The notes under the pieces were generated by a model, which saw only the letters and a program-made list of their open reading frames with translations, was not told where the DNA came from and ran no database searches. This document shows positions 29,397 to 61,953 of a stretch of DNA of 64,000 nt, piece by piece (the stretch's first letter is position 1; every line of letters begins with the position of its first letter). The DNA lies in NCBI GenBank assembly GCA_036835125.1, contig DAITMO010000001.1:609399-673398 (forward strand), in the 5' to 3' direction. Source of the stretch: Patescibacteria group bacterium (GTDB lineage: Bacteria; Patescibacteriota; Microgenomatia; UBA8517). The position numbers were made by a program, and so were the translations under genes.

Positions 29397-30353
29397 CTAA
29401 GTTTTTCCTCCTTTTCCATGAAATGCTGAGTGGATATCGCGAAGTTGTTTATTTGTTACATGTGTATAAATTTGTGTTGTAGAAATATTTTTATGTCCAA
29501 GCATTTCCTGAACACTTCTAATGTCAGCCCCTGCCATAAGTAAGTCTGTTGCAAAACTATGGCGCATTACGTGGGGAGTCACTTCGACCGGTAGTTTCAT
29601 TTTATGGGAATACTTTTTTACCATTCTTTGAACAGATCTGACAGTTAGCCTCATTTTTTCATCAGGAGTGCCTGGAGCTGAGATTCCTTTATGGTGTATA
29701 AAAAGAGGTTTGTAATTATCGTCTCTCTCATTTAGGTACTTAATTAACCAGTCTGTGGCTCTCTGAGACATAAAGACAACGCGGGCCTTTCCACCTTTTC
29801 CAATGATTCCAAACTCACGCCTATCTAAATCCACTTTGTCACAATCAAGCTTCACAAGTTCGCTTACACGAAGTCCTGTTGAAAAAAGCATCTCAAGGAT
29901 TGCCTTGTCCCGTTTTCCTTGAATTGTTGAAAGACTGGGTGCATTTAAAAGCCTGTCTACTTGTTCGCCACTTAAGAATTTAACCTGTCTCTCTTCAACT
30001 TTCGGAATTTCAATTTTGTCAGGTGCCATAACTTGGTAATCGTTTCTGGTTAACCATTTTAAGAAACTCCTTAGGGCAATTACATGATATCCCTGAGTTC
30101 TTCTGGTCATCTGAGGCTTATTTTCACCAGGAAGATTGGAAAGATACACCCTAAAGCTTCTTACAACATCAGGATTAATATCTTTCAGTTCCTGCCTTAT
30201 ACCTTCATTACTCATCCAATTGGTAAAACGCGTTAAGTAGTGTTTGTAGTCCCGTATCGTTAGGGGAGAGGAGCCTTTCTCTATTTGGAGATATTCCAAA
30301 AACTGATCAACCTTCTTTGCTATTTCAGAAGTGTTCTTTGCAGACTCTGGCAT
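29397..30353 (-). CDS. tyrosine site-specific recombinase, XerC/XerD family
   Basis: C-terminal catalytic region HVMRHSFATDLLMAGADIRSVQEMLGHKNISTTQIYTHV (R..H..R/H..Y) and an N-terminal SAM-like domain. Confidence 0.8.
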   Translation of the reverse strand: MPESAKNTSEIAKKVDQFLEYLQIEKGSSPLTIRDYKHYLTRFTNWMSNEGIRQELKDINPDVVRSFRVYLSNLPGENKPQMTRRTQGYHVIALRSFLKWLTRNDYQVMAPDKIEIPKVEERQVKFLSGEQVDRLLNAPSLSTIQGKRDKAILEMLFSTGLRVSELVKLDCDKVDLDRREFGIIGKGGKARVVFMSQRATDWLIKYLNERDDNYKPLFIHHKGISAPGTPDEKMRLTVRSVQRMVKKYSHKMKLPVEVTPHVMRHSFATDLLMAGADIRSVQEMLGHKNISTTQIYTHVTNKQLRDIHSAFHGKGGKT

Positions 30354-43883: not shown

Positions 43884-44792
43884 ATGCAAAAAGGTCCAGT
43901 TACACCAAAAGGGTTTGGGGACATACTCCCAACGGAGGCTGCTAAAAGGCGTTTTATGTTTAACGCTATTGCCCCAATTCTTGAAAAAAATGGGTTTGTT
44001 CCATTGGAAACTCCAACTATCGAGTTTGCAGAAACTCTACTTGGAAAATATGGGGAAGATGAAAAACTTATTTATAAATTTGAAGATAAGGGAGGAAGAA
44101 AACTTGCTTTAAGGTACGACCTCACTGTTCCCCTAGCCCGCTTCGTTTCAAATAATCTTGGACTTCTTACCCCAACATTTAGTAGATATCAGATTGGACA
44201 AGTTTTCAGAGGAGACAATCCACAAAAAGGAAGGAAAAGAGAGTTTACACAATTTGATTTTGATACAGTAGGATCAATCGATGCCTCAGAAGATATAAAA
44301 GTTATTGCAGCCGCAATTGAAGCAGCTCGAGCAATTGGACTAAAGGATGCAATCATACAAATAAACGACCGCACAATCTTTGATGAAATTGGTTTTTCAA
44401 AAGAAGCAGTTGTAGCGATTGATAAAATTGACAAAATTGGGAAAGAGGAAGTCCTCAAACTTTTAAAGGAAATTGATCCAAAAGGTGCTGAAGTAAACTT
44501 TAAAAAACTTGAGAATCCAATAATCCCTGAAAGACTTTCTAAAATCTTAGAAGGTTTAAAGTTAAAAGGATTAAAAGATGGAGTCGATTATGTTTTCAAT
44601 CCATACCTTGCTAGAGGTTTAAATTACTATACCTCAACCGTACTAGAGCTAAAATTAGATAAAACTCCAGGAGGTCTTTCCATTGGTGGTGGTGGACGCT
44701 ATGACAACCTAATTGGAATGTTTGCAGGGCGCGATATTCCCGCAATCGGTTTTTCCTTTGGAATAGATCGTATACTAGATTTACTTCCTTAA
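43884..44792 (+). CDS. histidyl-tRNA synthetase-like catalytic core (HisRS/HisZ-like) lacking an anticodon-binding domain
   Basis: Class II motifs: KLALRYDLTVPLARF, FRGDNPQKGRKREFTQFDFD (motif 2), GGGRYDNL...GFSFGIDRIL (motif 3). Only 302 aa. Confidence 0.7.
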   Translation: MQKGPVTPKGFGDILPTEAAKRRFMFNAIAPILEKNGFVPLETPTIEFAETLLGKYGEDEKLIYKFEDKGGRKLALRYDLTVPLARFVSNNLGLLTPTFSRYQIGQVFRGDNPQKGRKREFTQFDFDTVGSIDASEDIKVIAAAIEAARAIGLKDAIIQINDRTIFDEIGFSKEAVVAIDKIDKIGKEEVLKLLKEIDPKGAEVNFKKLENPIIPERLSKILEGLKLKGLKDGVDYVFNPYLARGLNYYTSTVLELKLDKTPGGLSIGGGGRYDNLIGMFAGRDIPAIGFSFGIDRILDLLP

Positions 44793-45753: not shown

Positions 45754-45817
45754 GCCAAACTTCTAACAAACGAGTTGGTATTGCTGATCCTAACCAAAAA
45801 TGCTAAAATTCACTGTT

Positions 45818-46132
45818 ATGAAAGCAGCAATTCATCCAAAATGGTTTGTCGAGGCAACAGTAACCTGTGCTTGTGGCAATGTGTTTACAACAGGCGCAAG
45901 CGTTCCTGAACTCCATGTAGATGTGTGTTCAGCTTGCCACCCATTTTATACAGGACAAATGAAGTTTGTTGATACTGCAGGGCGCGTTGACGCTTTCAAG
46001 GCTAAAATGCAGGGAGCTACAAAACATGTAAGTAAAACTGAAAAAAGAAGACTCAAAGAAGCAAAAAGACAAGAAGAAGAAGCTTCTCGACCAGAAACGC
46101 TTAACGAACTTCGTTCTACAGATACCAAATAG
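45818..46132 (+). CDS. rpmE: 50S ribosomal protein L31
   Basis: [28 protein letters not shown]...[27 protein letters not shown], with a Lys/Glu-rich C-terminal extension. Confidence 0.85.
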
Positions 46133-46164
46133 GAAGCTAAATGTAGCTTGATACTACCTATCAT

Positions 46165-46887
46165 TTGCTACATACTACAATCATGAATCCACAAAATCAG
46201 ACTGTTTATTTAGAAATTAGGGGTGCTACAGGAGGAGATGAAGCAAAGCTATGGGGAGCCGACCTTCTTCGTATGTATATACGCTACGCAGTAAAGAAAA
46301 ACTGGAAAACAGCACTTGTTTCTGAAAATACCCTAAAAATTTCAGGTTTTGGTGTATATGACAACCTAAAAAATGAATCAGGAGTTCATAGAGTTCAAAG
46401 GGTCCCAACTACTGAAAAAAGAGGTAGAATTCATACATCAACTGCAACTGTTGTAGTTCTTCCTGAAGTTAGAGATACCGATATACAAATTAATCCAAAC
46501 GACCTGGATTGGCAATTCACTACTGGAGGTGGTCATGGAGGACAAAATGTAAATAAAGTTGCGACAGCTGTCAGACTCACTCATAGACCCACCGGTATCG
46601 TCGTACAAGCCCGCGAGGAGAGGTTTCAAGAGCAAAATAGACAAATAGCCCTTTCCCTTCTAAGAAGCCGCCTTTGGGAGCATCAAGAGGCTGAAAAAAT
46701 GAGAACAATTGCAGGTTATAGAAGTGTAATTGGGCGAGGAATGAGATCTGAAAAAATTAGAACCTACAATTTTCCTCAAGACAGAGTAACTGATCATAGA
46801 ATTGGGAAAAGCTGGGGAAAACTTGAACTAATTGTTGATGGGGATTTAGAACGAGTCATCGAACTAACCAAAAACATTGAAGCTTAA
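46165..46887 (+). CDS. prfA: class I peptide chain release factor, RF1-like, lacking N-terminal domain 1
   Basis: Begins at the domain-2 motif YLEIRGATGGDEAKLW. GVHRVQRVPTTEKRGRIHTS has a PxT-type tripeptide (PTT). GGQ motif in TTGGGHGGQNVNKVATAVRLTH. 240 aa versus about 360 for canonical RF1. Confidence 0.75.
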   Translation: MLHTTIMNPQNQTVYLEIRGATGGDEAKLWGADLLRMYIRYAVKKNWKTALVSENTLKISGFGVYDNLKNESGVHRVQRVPTTEKRGRIHTSTATVVVLPEVRDTDIQINPNDLDWQFTTGGGHGGQNVNKVATAVRLTHRPTGIVVQAREERFQEQNRQIALSLLRSRLWEHQEAEKMRTIAGYRSVIGRGMRSEKIRTYNFPQDRVTDHRIGKSWGKLELIVDGDLERVIELTKNIEA

Positions 46888-51464: not shown

Positions 51465-52868
51465 CTAACTAACCTGGTTATCTGATACTAAGAAACCAGC
51501 TTTTATTATTTCATCCCTTATTTTGTCAGCTTCTTCATATTTTCCTTGGCTTCTTAGATTCTGCCTTTTGTCCATTAATATTTTAATATCATCCGGAATC
51601 TGTTTATTAAGAACTAAATTTTCAGACAACTTCAATCCAAGTATTTCATCAAAGCTTATTACAAGATCATATTTATCATTTGACGGAATATTACTCCCAA
51701 GCATGGACCACATTACTGCTAAAGCTTTAGGGGTATTTAAATCATCACTAACTGCAAGCATAAAATCGTTCCTAAACATTTCTATCTTTTGATCTTTCTC
51801 CTCTGAAAGAGTTGTTCTTTCAGTGTTTAGTTTAAGACTTGATACTAAAGATCTAAGTTTATTTAAGGCGTTTTGAGAAGCAGATAAACTCTCCCATGTA
51901 AAATTCAGGGGATCACGATAATGTGCTCCAAGATAAAGGTAGCGTAAAGCCAGTGGGTCAAATCCCTTCTTCTCTATATCAGCAACTGTATAAAAATTCC
52001 CTAAAGATTTACTCATCTTTTTACCATCAACCATTAAAAATGCCGTATGAAGCCAGTACTTGGCAAATGGTTTCTTGCCTGTTCCTGCTTCACTTTGTGC
52101 AATTTCATTTGGATGGTGAATACTAATGTGATCTTCTCCCCCAGTATGAATATCAAATTGTTCACCAAGATATTTCATACTCATTGCAGAGCATTCAATA
52201 TGCCACCCTGGAAATCCATCTCCCCATGGGGAATCCCAATGCATTGTGTGGTCAGAAAATCTCCCAATTCTTTTAAACCAAAGAGTAAAGTCGGCAGGAT
52301 GCTTTTTATACTCCCCTGTTTTAACTTCACTTCTCACTGCTACTTGTTTGTCTTCCAATTTTTGTCCAAAAGACTTTCCATATTCAGAAAACTTTGTGAC
52401 ATCAAAATAAACCGCTTCGGGTGTGTCATAACCATATCCATTTTCAAGTATCTTTTTAATTAGATTTATTTGATCTTCTATGTGATCTGTAGCTTTACAA
52501 ATAACATCAGGGCGAATGATATTAAGCTTATCCATTGACTCATAGAAGTTCTTTGTATAGTATTCAGCAATTTCCCAAACCGTTTTTCCATACTTGAAAG
52601 CTCCTTTTTCCATCTTATCCTCACCTTCATCCGCATCACTTGCTAAATGCCCTACATCAGTAACATTTTGAACATGTTTAACTTTGTAGCCACTTGTCGT
52701 AAGAACTCTTTTTAAAACATCATCAATGACATACTTTCTGCCATGTCCAATATGTGCAAAGTCATATACGGTCATTCCACAGGTATACATTCCAACATTT
52801 GGAGGAGTAATTGGAAGAAACTTTTCTTTTTGCCTACTTAATGTGTTTGTAAGATATATGTCAGCCAC
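51465..52868 (-). CDS. cysS: cysteinyl-tRNA synthetase
   Basis: Class I HIGH (FAHIGHGR) and KMSKS motifs, plus the Zn-binding Cys in TCGMT. Confidence 0.9.
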   Translation of the reverse strand: MADIYLTNTLSRQKEKFLPITPPNVGMYTCGMTVYDFAHIGHGRKYVIDDVLKRVLTTSGYKVKHVQNVTDVGHLASDADEGEDKMEKGAFKYGKTVWEIAEYYTKNFYESMDKLNIIRPDVICKATDHIEDQINLIKKILENGYGYDTPEAVYFDVTKFSEYGKSFGQKLEDKQVAVRSEVKTGEYKKHPADFTLWFKRIGRFSDHTMHWDSPWGDGFPGWHIECSAMSMKYLGEQFDIHTGGEDHISIHHPNEIAQSEAGTGKKPFAKYWLHTAFLMVDGKKMSKSLGNFYTVADIEKKGFDPLALRYLYLGAHYRDPLNFTWESLSASQNALNKLRSLVSSLKLNTERTTLSEEKDQKIEMFRNDFMLAVSDDLNTPKALAVMWSMLGSNIPSNDKYDLVISFDEILGLKLSENLVLNKQIPDDIKILMDKRQNLRSQGKYEEADKIRDEIIKAGFLVSDNQVS

Positions 52869-53289
52869 GATTTATTATATCAGAAGGTTCTATGCGTTTG
52901 ACTCCCAATTTATCAAAATCCTTGTCATATGACAAAATTACTAATTCTTTATTCTGAACTTCATATATTGAAGCAATCAATACATCAATAAATTTAACCG
53001 AATTTTTCTTGTACATGTCCAGGGCTTTTAAGTAAGAATATCTATCTTTAATTTCTAGATTTGGAATATTTAAAATACTTCTGACAGCGTCAGTCACTTT
53101 ATCTTTGGAAAAATTATAAAATGATCCCAATGTCCAAACAATTTCAGAAATTACAATACCCGAAGTAACAGCAGATATTTTTCCTTTTTTTATTTTTTCA
53201 AATAAAACCAAACATTCAGTTAACATTTTTGGGTTATCACCAGTAAAGACACGCAGAAATACATTTGTATCAATGAAATATTTTTTCAT
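52861..53289 (-). CDS. vapC: PIN-domain toxin VapC
   Basis: FIDTNVFL with the N-terminal acidic residue and ...SYDKDFDKLG in the C-terminal acidic cluster. Confidence 0.7.
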   Translation of the reverse strand: MKKYFIDTNVFLRVFTGDNPKMLTECLVLFEKIKKGKISAVTSGIVISEIVWTLGSFYNFSKDKVTDAVRSILNIPNLEIKDRYSYLKALDMYKKNSVKFIDVLIASIYEVQNKELVILSYDKDFDKLGVKRIEPSDIINRG

Positions 53290-58270: not shown

Positions 58271-59500
58271 TCAAGGTAAAAGCCTTTTGTTTATTTCTTC
58301 TAAACTCAAAAGTTCGTTCTTCTTGGAATCTCTCTCTTTCCACTCAATTCTATCTCCATTACGCTCCGAAATTACTAATCTAAGTGGAATTCCAATGAGG
58401 TCTGCATCTGCAAATTTTTCTCCTGCTGGAACATTTCTGTCATCCCACAGGGTGTCAACCCCAATGTCTTTTAATTTATTATAAATTTCTTCTCCCTTTC
58501 TCCCTGGAAGTTCAACTAGGTGAACATCAAATGGAGCAATTGCTTTGTTCCAAATAATTCCATGATCATCATGTGACACTTCCACCCATGTTCCCATAAC
58601 TCTGGTAGGGCCTATTCCATAACTTGCAAACCATACTGGTTTTTTAAGTCCCTTTTCATCTGTAAAGTAGACTCTCATGCGCTCTGCATACCAAGTACCA
58701 AGTGGAAAAATATTTCCAACCTCCACTGTTTTATCTAATTTTTCTATTTTTCCCTTCTTGCAAACTGGACATAAATCTTCCTCTTTTCCATCATATATTT
58801 CCTTATTTACAGCAAAATTACACTTATCACATGCATAAACAATATCCTCTCCATTTGCGTTTAATACTTGAAATTCGTGCGTATGCTTTTCGGTAAATAC
58901 TCCTCCACTAGCCTCAACCACCTTAAAATCAAACCCAATTCTCTTAAAGATCTTTATATAAGCTTCTTTTATTTTCTCGTAGTACCCCATCATGTCTTCT
59001 TCATTTACATGAGCTGAGTAAAGATCCTTCATCAAAAACTCCCTGCCTCTTAAGATTCCAGAACGTGCTCTTGGTTCATTTCTAAACTTTGTAGAAAACT
59101 GGTAAATTGAAACAGGTAAATCTTGGTAGCTTTTAATGTTTTTACGAAGAAGGTCCATCACAATTTCTTCATGAGTAAAAGAAAGTACATAATCTTTTTT
59201 CCTTGTATCAGTTAGCTTGTACATTATCTCGTCCGCTTTATCCCAACGCCCAGTTTCTGCCCAAATTTCTTTTGGGTGAAGAAGTGGCATTGCAAGCTCT
59301 AATCCTCCAACAGCGTTTATCTCTTCCCTTATAATATTATTTATTTTTGTAACAACTTTTAAACCCAAAGGAAGTAAAGTAAAACTACCACTCATAAGCT
59401 GATCTATAAATCCTCCACGAACCAAAAGTTTATGATTAATGCTCTCAGCATCTTTTGGCGCTTCTCTTCTAGTTTTTGGAAATAGTTCTGATTGCCTCAT
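58271..59500 (-). CDS. proS: prolyl-tRNA synthetase, minimal form
   Basis: SFTLLPLGLKV (motif 1), FRNEPRARSGILRGREFLMKDLYS (motif 2), an inserted CDKC...CPVCKKG zinc ribbon, and a C-terminal anticodon-binding-like GIPLRLVISERNGD. 409 aa with no editing domain. Confidence 0.75.
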   Translation of the reverse strand: MRQSELFPKTRREAPKDAESINHKLLVRGGFIDQLMSGSFTLLPLGLKVVTKINNIIREEINAVGGLELAMPLLHPKEIWAETGRWDKADEIMYKLTDTRKKDYVLSFTHEEIVMDLLRKNIKSYQDLPVSIYQFSTKFRNEPRARSGILRGREFLMKDLYSAHVNEEDMMGYYEKIKEAYIKIFKRIGFDFKVVEASGGVFTEKHTHEFQVLNANGEDIVYACDKCNFAVNKEIYDGKEEDLCPVCKKGKIEKLDKTVEVGNIFPLGTWYAERMRVYFTDEKGLKKPVWFASYGIGPTRVMGTWVEVSHDDHGIIWNKAIAPFDVHLVELPGRKGEEIYNKLKDIGVDTLWDDRNVPAGEKFADADLIGIPLRLVISERNGDRIEWKERDSKKNELLSLEEINKRLLP

Positions 59501-60679: not shown

Positions 60680-60931
60680 ATGCTTACAAAAAGTGATGTA
60701 AAAATTATTGGTGATTTATTTGATGAGAAATTTGACAAGAAATTCGATGAAAAGTTCGATAAGAAATTCGAATCAGCATTCAAAAAACACACAGCACCTA
60801 TTAAAGAAGATATTAGTCAAATCAGAAAAGATCAGAAAGCTATTATTAGATTTTTCGACCGTGAGTATCTAAATCTTCGCAAGCGCGTTGAAAGAATTGA
60901 AACATTTTTGAAGCTTCCTGCCGTAAATTAA
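60680..60931 (+). CDS. hypothetical small protein with KFDEKFDKKFDEKFDKKFE repeats
   Basis: 83 aa with an internal tetrapeptide/hexapeptide repeat. Confidence 0.3.
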   Translation: MLTKSDVKIIGDLFDEKFDKKFDEKFDKKFESAFKKHTAPIKEDISQIRKDQKAIIRFFDREYLNLRKRVERIETFLKLPAVN

Positions 60932-61485
60932 ATTTGCAAGAGTTCTGCTTTCTTTTTCTCACCTATGGAATCAATCATTCCAATAAATTCATCCGTAATC
61001 TCTTGAAGTTTTTTCTCAAATCCAAACTTATCATCTTCTGTAATTTCCTTCTTCTCAAAGCCATCCTTAATGTTTTTCATTTCATCAGCCCTAACTTGTC
61101 TAACTGCAACCTTTCCGTTTTCAAGTTTTCCAGATAAAAGCTTTACATATTTTTCCCTATCCTCTGTTGTCATTGGAGGAATAACAATTCTTAATATTTC
61201 TCCATCAATTGAAGGGTTTAAACCAATATTTGCTTCGAGTATTCCCTTTCTAATATCCCCAATAATAGATTTATCCCAAGGGTTTATCACTATCTGGGCT
61301 GAATCTGGAGCAGTAATCGTTGCCAATTCCATCACTTTCAATCTTTGAGTTCCTCCATAAGCAGGACAAACAATATTCTCTACCAATGAGGGTGTGGCTC
61401 TTCCAGTTCTAATACCGGCAATATCAGAAGCTATAACGTCAAGTGTTAATTGCATCTTGGAGCGTATTGAAGTTTCGTCCATCAA
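60928..61485 (-). CDS. frr: ribosome recycling factor
   Basis: Full-length RRF architecture (...GIRTGRATPSLVENI...LNPSIDGEILRIVIPPMTTEDREKYVK). Confidence 0.9.
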   Translation of the reverse strand: MMDETSIRSKMQLTLDVIASDIAGIRTGRATPSLVENIVCPAYGGTQRLKVMELATITAPDSAQIVINPWDKSIIGDIRKGILEANIGLNPSIDGEILRIVIPPMTTEDREKYVKLLSGKLENGKVAVRQVRADEMKNIKDGFEKKEITEDDKFGFEKKLQEITDEFIGMIDSIGEKKKAELLQI

Positions 61486-61497
61486 TTTAATTATATA

Positions 61498-61953
61498 TTA
61501 TTTTATTCCTAGTTCAATTCTCTCAACTCTTCCAAGTTTTACATTCTCACCAGTTTTTGCTTTAAGTTCTTTAACTAAGTCTTCAACTTTTTTACTTCCA
61601 TCTTTAACAAAATCCTGTTTTTCAAAGTCCTTGTCTCCCATACTTGCTACCTGCATCGCCAAGTCTTTTCCTGTTTCCTGAAAAAGATCTGTTTTAGCAA
61701 CAAAGTCCGTCTCACAAAGAAGCTCTACCAAACCAACAACTTTACCTGTGTGATGTGCATATATAAAAATTCTACCCTCGGATGTTTCCCTACCTTCTCT
61801 CTTCTCAGCTTTTTCAAATCCTTCCTTTTTTAAGACCTCTAAAGCTTTCTTTTCATCTCCCCCAACTTCTTCTAACACCTCACGAATTCTAATAATAGCA
61901 ACACCAGTTTCTTCACGAAGTTTTTTGATAAGATCAATATCTATTTTTGCCAT
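61498..61953 (-). CDS. tsf: elongation factor Ts, short form
   Basis: N-terminal UBA-like LIKKLREETGVAI...IREVLEEVGGDEKKALEVLKK, plus one core domain; 151 aa. Confidence 0.8.
   Translation of the reverse strand: MAKIDIDLIKKLREETGVAIIRIREVLEEVGGDEKKALEVLKKEGFEKAEKREGRETSEGRIFIYAHHTGKVVGLVELLCETDFVAKTDLFQETGKDLAMQVASMGDKDFEKQDFVKDGSKKVEDLVKELKAKTGENVKLGRVERIELGIK

Follow-up and report, generated by a model that had tools for sequence, protein, structure and literature searches.

A domain-1-less peptide chain release factor 1, probably of housekeeping function, in Woesebacteria-like Microgenomates

The 64,000-nucleotide stretch analysed here, referred to as the window (positions 609,399 to 673,398 of contig DAITMO010000001.1, assembled from a Patescibacteria group bacterium), encodes on its forward strand, at 46183..46887, a protein of 234 amino acids followed by a TAA stop, which its sequence identifies as a peptide chain release factor 1 (RF1, gene prfA) devoid of the N-terminal domain 1. 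This domain of RF1 is helical and makes contact with RF3 and with the L11/L7-L12 stalk region; it is regarded as a regular component of class-I release factors in bacteria, where it serves as the handle for both. The explanation that best accounts for the data, with a probability of about 0.82, is that the gene encodes the housekeeping RF1 of Woesebacteria-like Microgenomates, members of the candidate phyla radiation (CPR), reduced to domains 2, 3 and 4.

Only the C-terminal half of the PCRF domain is recognised by Pfam in the window protein (PF03462, positions 99-194 of 194, E=7e-34), together with a complete RF-1 domain (PF00472), and in the two prfA models of NCBIfam the alignment runs from position 102 of 347 and position 111 of 361 to near the model ends. 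The alignment with E. coli RF1 begins at residue 107-109, residue 5 of the window protein standing opposite E. coli residue 107; about 105-110 N-terminal residues, which make up the helical domain 1, are missing. An initial annotation of the window had put the loss at about 110 residues and held that they are not encoded upstream, and both statements stand, since the spacer of 50 nt that separates prfA from the preceding gene, rpmE, leaves no room for domain 1. A separately encoded domain 1 was sought by phmmer with six queries (E. coli, one canonical representative and four intermediate CPR forms) against all six-frame open reading frames (ORFs) of at least 25 amino acids in the window and in 88 CPR loci; no separate ORF was found in either set, the only matches being the N-termini of intermediate RF1 genes. 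No second class-I release factor gene was detected in the window or in these 88 loci, and none in about 0.68 Mb of CPR sequence, which consists of prfA neighbourhoods.

The retained domains 2, 3 and 4 are collinear with canonical RF1 and 44-52% identical to it. The single internal difference from E. coli RF1 is a deletion of 10 residues (151-160) in a hairpin loop of domain 2, located at S47/E48 (46321..46326) of the window protein; it is also present in another short RF1, P0126, but not in the short form P0143 from Parcubacteria. Domain 3, the peptidyl-tRNA hydrolase domain, occupies 46474..46800 (PF00472 positions 2-116 of 116, E=4.3e-35) and carries the GGQ motif (G119-G120-Q121, 46537-46545), aligned to G233-G234-Q235 of E. 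coli. The motif is therefore intact, as initially annotated, and it was found in 80 of 80 loci of related species.

The scores obtained with the NCBIfam models were 300.6 (TIGR00019) and 308.9 (NF001859) bits for prfA, compared with 191.7 for prfB (TIGR00020), 63.8 for prfH (TIGR03072) and 46.5 for ArfB, of which the last matches only a 35-residue stretch (residues 105-139); the protein is under the cut-offs of the prfB, prfH and ArfB models (370, 166.65 and 100, respectively). The best matches among solved structures were RF1 of T. maritima (residues 87-318), S. mutans and E. coli (109-342), reaching E=7e-69, and the RF1 chains in PDB scored 205-235 bits versus 109-135 bits for RF2 chains. 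These results support the assignment of the protein to RF1 rather than to RF2, PrfH or ArfB, in accordance with the initial annotation as an RF1 homolog.

The stop-codon recognition region, which corresponds to the N-terminal part of domain 2/4 and to the PCRF half-domain, is encoded at 46195..46452 and opens with the helix alpha-5 motif YLEIRGATGGDEA; in this region the residues from R13 to A21 are invariant among 39 family members. The decoding loop (46396..46440) reads Q72-R-V-P75-T76-T77-E78 ... I83-H84-T85-S86. By column mapping, residues Q72, P75, T76, T77, E78, I83, H84 and T85 correspond to Q185, P188, A189, T190, E191, I196, H197 and T198 of E. coli RF1, while at the discriminating columns, where RF2 has V, S, P, F, D and R, the window protein has RF1-type residues throughout. 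Residues P75, T77, E78, I83, T85 and S86 are invariant in the 39-member alignment of the short family. The PxT tripeptide (46405-46413) is PTT, which had been annotated as a departure from the usual tripeptides of RF1. However, the middle residue is free to vary in full-length RF1: among 77 representatives it is E in 26, A in 14, V and K in 10 each, Q in 8, S in 4, T in 2, and other residues in one each, so that PTT itself occurs in two of them. In the short family the middle position is likewise occupied by V, T, I, S, A, E and others, and the first and third positions are invariant. By these comparisons PTT is an ordinary RF1 tripeptide. As all specificity-setting residues are of the RF1 type, the established structural knowledge of RF1 decoding predicts ordinary specificity for UAA and UAG, and the earlier suggestion of an altered codon specificity finds no support.

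The short form is maintained in the relatives of the window organism. The closest protein clusters, 120 of the 120 listed, are 224-244 amino acids long and 80-98% identical; they originate from NCBI, JGI, ENA and Logan assemblies, several of them on contigs of 0.75-1.08 Mb, and the names present among them are Woesebacteria, Microgenomates or Patescibacteria. When GTDB was scanned with each species represented by a single genome, 283 related stretches were matched and the best 80 loci were inspected; GGQ and PxT were present in all 80, which come from independent projects and include closed chromosomes. In the 39-member alignment the mean column identity is 83% and the functional residues are invariant. 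Comparison with the nearest species gave a pN of 0.10-0.12 with pS saturated at about 0.78, and dN/dS of 0.04-0.07 where dS was computable, which is strong evidence that the short prfA is under purifying selection. The initial annotation had named two observations that would speak against a genuine truncation, an indel restoring an upstream domain and a full-length RF1 at the same position in relatives, and neither was encountered. The short form is kept in every close relative, which argues against an indel artefact; no close relative has a full-length RF1, and the most distant Microgenomates have only a shortened remnant of the domain. As a control, a pattern scan of metagenomes for AT-rich SPFD...RRHT coding sequences gave 120 RF2 loci, none of them recognisably CPR, and every RF2 with its N-terminus inside the contig was full length; short class-I factors are thus no general by-product of metagenome assemblies.

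The names given to these proteins in databases are inconsistent and comprise 'peptide chain release factor 1', 'PCRF domain-containing protein', 'release factor-like protein' and 'hypothetical protein'. In addition, many GTDB records with the Microgenomates-type gene (L002, L003, L009, L012 and others) were submitted as 'uncultured Gammaproteobacteria bacterium' (TPA_asm metagenome-assembled genomes); these names look wrong, as judged by the RF1 sequence and synteny, which are those of Microgenomates.

The mechanical gene call extends from 46165 to 46887 on the forward strand, with TTG at 46165 as its first codon, and for this start the distance of 32 nt from the rpmE stop reported earlier is accurate. 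However, 69 orthologous loci likewise lack the helical N-terminal segment, and in most of them a methionine stands 6-9 residues ahead of the motif YLEIRGATGGDEAK, with no conservation 5' of it. Because the position of the methionine is kept and the sequence ahead of it is not conserved, these alignments make ATG at 46183 almost certainly the true start of prfA and TTG at 46165 the less likely one. The gap to the rpmE stop is then 50 nt (spacer 46133..46182, which contains the TTG codon). The rpmE gene itself (45800..46132, forward strand, TAG stop) encodes ribosomal protein L31 of 110 amino acids, identified by PF01197 (E=1.9e-26) and by the L31 equivalog models of NCBIfam. It is directly upstream of the short RF1 gene in most of the 80 species loci, the two genes being 0-130 nt apart or overlapping, and L31 holds the same place in loci L081-L091 and L289-L291. 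The rpmE-prfA gene order is known from other bacteria; in this analysis it was seen only in CPR loci. The neighbours of prfA in the window are rpmE, EamA, an S41 peptidase and S18-SSB, with no RtcB among them.

The L31 models cover the protein to about residue 74 of the 110, and the remaining part, about 36-40 residues, is a tail rich in Lys and Glu; L31 has 101 residues in the relatives and 69-88 in Parcubacteria. The tail was considered as a captured remnant of domain 1, an idea that was rejected, as it has no similarity to this domain of RF1.

Some related genomes retain part of domain 1. In loci L069-L077 and L080 (Amesbacteria and other metagenome-assembled genomes), where prfA lies at about 2785-3765, 58-92 residues are kept ahead of the conserved motif. 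This segment is predicted from its composition to be helical and can be recognised as a homologue of the C-terminal helices in domain 1 of E. coli RF1 (L070, E=7e-4), and the intermediate forms align to TIGR00019 from position 58. A stub of 23 residues is present in P0122 and L079. In a rough neighbour-joining tree of domains 2-4, the intermediate forms are basal to a large clade with 6-9 residues before the motif, inside which the window RF1 is placed. A few apparently independent complete losses, including L072 (Gottesmanbacteria) and P0125, lie near the intermediates, and the short forms P0126 (232 amino acids) and P0143 (242 amino acids) branch elsewhere.

With P0143 as the query, a database search brought to light a second, likewise large family of short RF1, 231-246 amino acids in length with some members of about 300, in Parcubacteria, the named members being Candidatus Portnoybacteria. 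In this family domain 1 is likewise missing and rpmE adjoins the gene; however, it is a separate family, about 52% identical to the window protein, and retains the domain-2 loop that the latter lacks. In the Parcubacteria loci L081-L083, L290 and L291 (five of six) the called rpmE overlaps the start of prfA by 4 nt, and in the sixth, the Parcubacteria-type locus L289, rpmE ends at the base where prfA starts; in all six, prfA is located at about 10001-10729. The branching of the P0143 family apart from the Microgenomates clade suggests an independent loss. With living intermediates and a second family at hand, domain 1 has been shed step by step within CPR, probably on more than one occasion.

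The domain-1-less RF1 would enter the ribosomal A site and read UAA and UAG by means of its conserved alpha-5 tip and PxT/Q/I-H-T decoding loop, after which the GGQ loop of domain 3 would swing into the peptidyl-transferase centre, and peptidyl-tRNA would be hydrolysed as by canonical RF1. With domain 1 missing, recycling by RF3 should not be possible, and the factor would leave the ribosome alone or during recycling by RRF and EF-G; RRF is encoded in the window at 60928-61485. One may speculate that the loss of the stalk-contacting domain speeds spontaneous dissociation. The model built with AlphaFold2 (AF2) has the domain 2/4 beta-sheet of RF1 with helix alpha-5, the GGQ domain and the long helix alpha-7, and superposes best, with a TM of about 0.6, on compact non-accommodated RF1, namely the free factor (1rq0 and 1zbt), the PrmC-bound factor (2b3t) and the pre-accommodated factor on the ribosome (6orl).

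Precedent for such a factor exists in the laboratory. According to the account of Mora et al. 2003 in PMC1586002, E. coli RF1 and RF2 deprived of domain 1 have unchanged codon specificity and keep release activity in vitro, truncated RF1 is functional in vivo, and deletion of the domain abolishes the stimulation of nucleotide exchange on RF3. The gene of RF3, prfC, can be dispensed with, and small genomes lack it (Baranov et al. 2006, PMC1586002). Judging by these deletions, the window RF1 would pass through a normal cycle of decoding and hydrolysis without RF3-assisted recycling. The architecture of the engineered factors (Mora, Zavialov, Ehrenberg & Buckingham 2003, as presented in PMC1586002) is that of the window RF1, namely domains 2-4. 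As described there, however, the engineered deletion is a laboratory form, made in an RF3-containing host and associated with slow growth, whereas the short RF1 of CPR is natural and strongly conserved and has had a long evolution in two classes.

Among known systems, canonical RF1 (TIGR00019/PRK00591; E. coli, T. thermophilus, T. maritima) has in common with the window protein the GGQ motif, the PxT and Q/I-H-T residues and the GxGGxE tip of alpha-5, but possesses both domain 1 (about 105-110 residues) and the 10-residue loop of domain 2. RF2 (PrfB) differs in its tripeptide, which is SPF instead of PTT. PrfH (RF-H) is a natural class-I release factor homologue without domain 1, which keeps a codon-recognition-like domain and GGQ (PMC1586002); unlike the window RF1, with its RF1-type loop and no RtcB nearby, it is an accessory factor with a divergent recognition motif, always paired with RtcB. 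ArfB (YaeJ) and the mitochondrial ICT1 are homologues of the GGQ domain 3 that, like the window RF1, act without domain 1; however, ArfB has no codon-recognition domain and acts by inserting its basic C-terminal tail into the empty mRNA channel, whereas the window RF1 has the PCRF half-domain.

Several other release factor-like sequences were met with in the scans. The loci L133-L141, on viral-classed IMG/VR contigs of 35-65% GC, encode at about 5947-6696 class-I homologues of 248 amino acids without domain 1, in which GGQ is present and QRCPP[SN]ER stands in place of QRVPxTE of RF1. Release factor-like ORFs of 165-175 amino acids with RIPPTE were found in L146-L153 and L164. The long representatives P0121 (477 amino acids) and P0124 (481 amino acids) were rejected as genuine long RF1, as an exactly duplicated internal segment marks them as assembly or gene-call chimeras. 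Representatives of 327-422 amino acids that look N-terminally short were rejected as new architectures; most of them are fragments, or fusions formed by read-through into PrmC or ABC-ATPase sequence.

The stop codons of the 66 non-overlapping ORFs of at least 100 amino acids in the window are TAA in 39, TAG in 15 and TGA in 12. TGA is thus used as a stop, as previously annotated, and one of the genes that end with it encodes SSB, which has the canonical C-terminus ...DIPF before the TGA. This usage calls for RF2 activity, and the expected reader of UGA is a distinct RF2 encoded elsewhere in the genome. No gene for RF2, RF3 or PrmC is among the 72 of about 75 window ORFs annotated with Pfam, and none was found within 10 kb either side of the short prfA in the Microgenomates and Parcubacteria relatives. 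For RF2 this means little, because the sequence covers prfA neighbourhoods only. SecA, looked for as a sign of a secA-prfB neighbourhood, was found in none of the CPR loci examined, and a scan of IMG/VR with the RF1/RF2 alignment, in which CPR RF2 was sought, gave phage and host RF2s. One candidate for a domain-1-less RF2 with an SPF motif (L123, 5959-6714, 55% GC) was rejected, as the gene is cut at an actinophage/host junction on an 8.8-kb IMG/VR contig. The loci L268/L282, in which prfA-prmC is accompanied by secA-prfB, were also rejected as CPR, since the contig is Bacillota-like; in L268 (1502-10507) prfA-prmC is followed, 7 kb away on this metagenome contig, by secA-prfB-uvrB.

Among the explanations that compete with a reduced housekeeping RF1, the loss of the 5' part of prfA by a frameshift, an indel or an assembly break, leaving an artefact or pseudogene, has a practically negligible likelihood. 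Metagenome assemblies do carry such errors in general, and two of the 150 representative RF1 sequences (P0121 and P0124, above) are indeed chimeric, several short ones being fragments fused to PrmC or ABC domains. However, the architecture is the same in every cluster and locus compared, with rpmE ending 0-130 nt upstream; dN/dS is below 0.07; the RF2 control is full length; and no upstream sequence exists that an indel could restore. It is improbable that the protein is an accessory or rescue paralogue of the PrfH or ArfB kind, accompanied by a full-length RF1 elsewhere in the genome. The known natural homologues without domain 1, PrfH and ArfB/ICT1, are rescue factors (PMC1586002), which lends this idea some plausibility; nevertheless, the rpmE-prfA arrangement, the RF1-type decoding loop, the model scores (300 bits for prfA against 64 for prfH and 47 for ArfB), the missing RtcB neighbour and the finding of no second release factor gene in the 0.68 Mb of CPR sequence all speak for prfA itself. 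Moreover, orthologues of intermediate length at the same locus indicate direct descent from prfA.

A split factor, with domain 1 still produced as a small protein of its own that associates in trans with the factor or the ribosome, is very improbable. Such an arrangement would be in keeping with a domain that is helical, structurally independent and flexibly attached (PMC1586002), and the search for a free domain 1 covered the window and 3-10 kb either side of the gene in relatives; yet none of the six queries ever matched a separate ORF there, and the shortening series of 110, 58-92, 23 and 0 residues looks like decay and not fission. An altered specificity, with UGA among the codons that the short factor reads, or with this factor as the sole class-I release factor of a lineage without RF2, is hardly credible. 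TGA does serve as a stop (12 of 66) and no RF2 was seen in the prfA neighbourhoods of CPR, as this proposal would have it; against it, the positions that discriminate RF1 from RF2 are RF1-type and invariant (T77, Q72 and I83), the middle residue of PxT, alone in being variable, is just as variable in ordinary RF1, and a TAG:TGA ratio of 15:12 looks like that of an organism with two factors. A far-reaching version would make the short RF1 an 'omnipotent' minimal factor, the sole class-I release factor, which terminates at UAA, UAG and UGA without RF2 and RF3. A milder one would give two CPR classes a termination that is independent of RF3 and the stalk, with co-adapted changes in L11 and the GTPase centre. 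Both are long shots, even when taken jointly.

The interpretation as a reduced housekeeping RF1 has several points of its own to meet. The prfA scores are under the curated equivalog cut-offs (300.6 against 423.25 for TIGR00019 and 308.9 against 400 for NF001859), and by this NCBIfam criterion the window protein is formally not a prfA equivalog, a shortfall attributable to the missing domain 1. The confidence of the AF2 model is moderate (pLDDT 69.7). A reviewer comment printed with PMC1586002 recalls that E. coli RF1 is inactive on ribosomes lacking L11, so the loss of the L11-contacting domain may carry a cost or need compensation. Finally, the proposal that this is the sole RF1 of the genome draws on the window and on the prfA neighbourhoods of relatives.

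A description of a domain-1-less housekeeping RF1 in CPR was not found in the literature searched, which lay mostly outside subscription journals, and a prior mention is possible. Term searches of a review of release factor evolution (PMC6514570), of papers on CPR ribosomes (PMC9297842 and PMC12641178), of a review of Patescibacteria and of the Codetta paper returned no mention. The protein is a natural form of a known factor, widespread and mechanistically interpretable, and no new kind of system. In effect, nature has made in a housekeeping RF1 the deletion constructed in the laboratory and kept it under strong selection in Microgenomates, and has done so again in Parcubacteria. These lineages offer a natural system for studying the contribution of domain 1 in cells, the recycling of RF1 without RF3 and the co-evolution of the stalk and GTPase centre with the factor. 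In practice, given the scores under the cut-offs and the inconsistent names, short prfA genes may be missed or too poorly annotated by marker-gene and annotation pipelines, in which case CPR genomes could look RF1-less and their completeness estimates would be lowered.

The window is a typical segment of a CPR chromosome, with 35.5% GC, a type IV pilus cluster, gyrBA and an S2-Tsf-RRF cluster, and several other translation genes in it are shortened. HisRS (43884-44792, forward strand), the only HisRS-like gene of the window, has 302 amino acids and matches TIGR00442 at positions 2-312 of 406 with 281 bits, just under the cut-off; it comprises the catalytic core and has no C-terminal anticodon-binding domain, and the HisZ models score lower. 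An orthologue of 301 amino acids is in the same place, before EamA-rpmE-prfA, in L085-L088. EF-Ts (61498-61953, reverse strand, 151 amino acids) matches positions 1-144 of 293 of TIGR00116, which is the N-terminal half only, under the cut-off, and an EF-Ts of 131-150 amino acids adjoins S2 in the Parcubacteria loci L081-L083 and L289-L291. ProRS (58271-59500, reverse strand, 409 amino acids) resembles the short 'exception' type NF008979 and is without the insertion (editing) domain, because its matches to the bacterial models of 559-568 amino acids fall in two separated stretches. The short RF1 joins these cases of domain pruning in the translation apparatus of CPR, among them the half-size EF-Ts and the HisRS without anticodon-binding domain. 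The streamlining with which the initial annotation found the loss of domain 1 to agree is thus supported as a pattern, given the pruned EF-Ts, HisRS and ProRS, though not as a mechanism.

The type IV pilus-like cluster (4523-13903, reverse strand) contains five to six pilin-like genes with N-terminal methylation motifs, a prepilin peptidase, a T2SS-F platform protein and two T2SS-E ATPases. An AbiEii-type nucleotidyltransferase toxin is encoded at 135-761 on the forward strand. On the reverse strand are genes for a PIN-domain protein (52861-53289), which shares a few bases with the start of cysS, and for a tyrosine recombinase similar to XerC/D (29397-30353).

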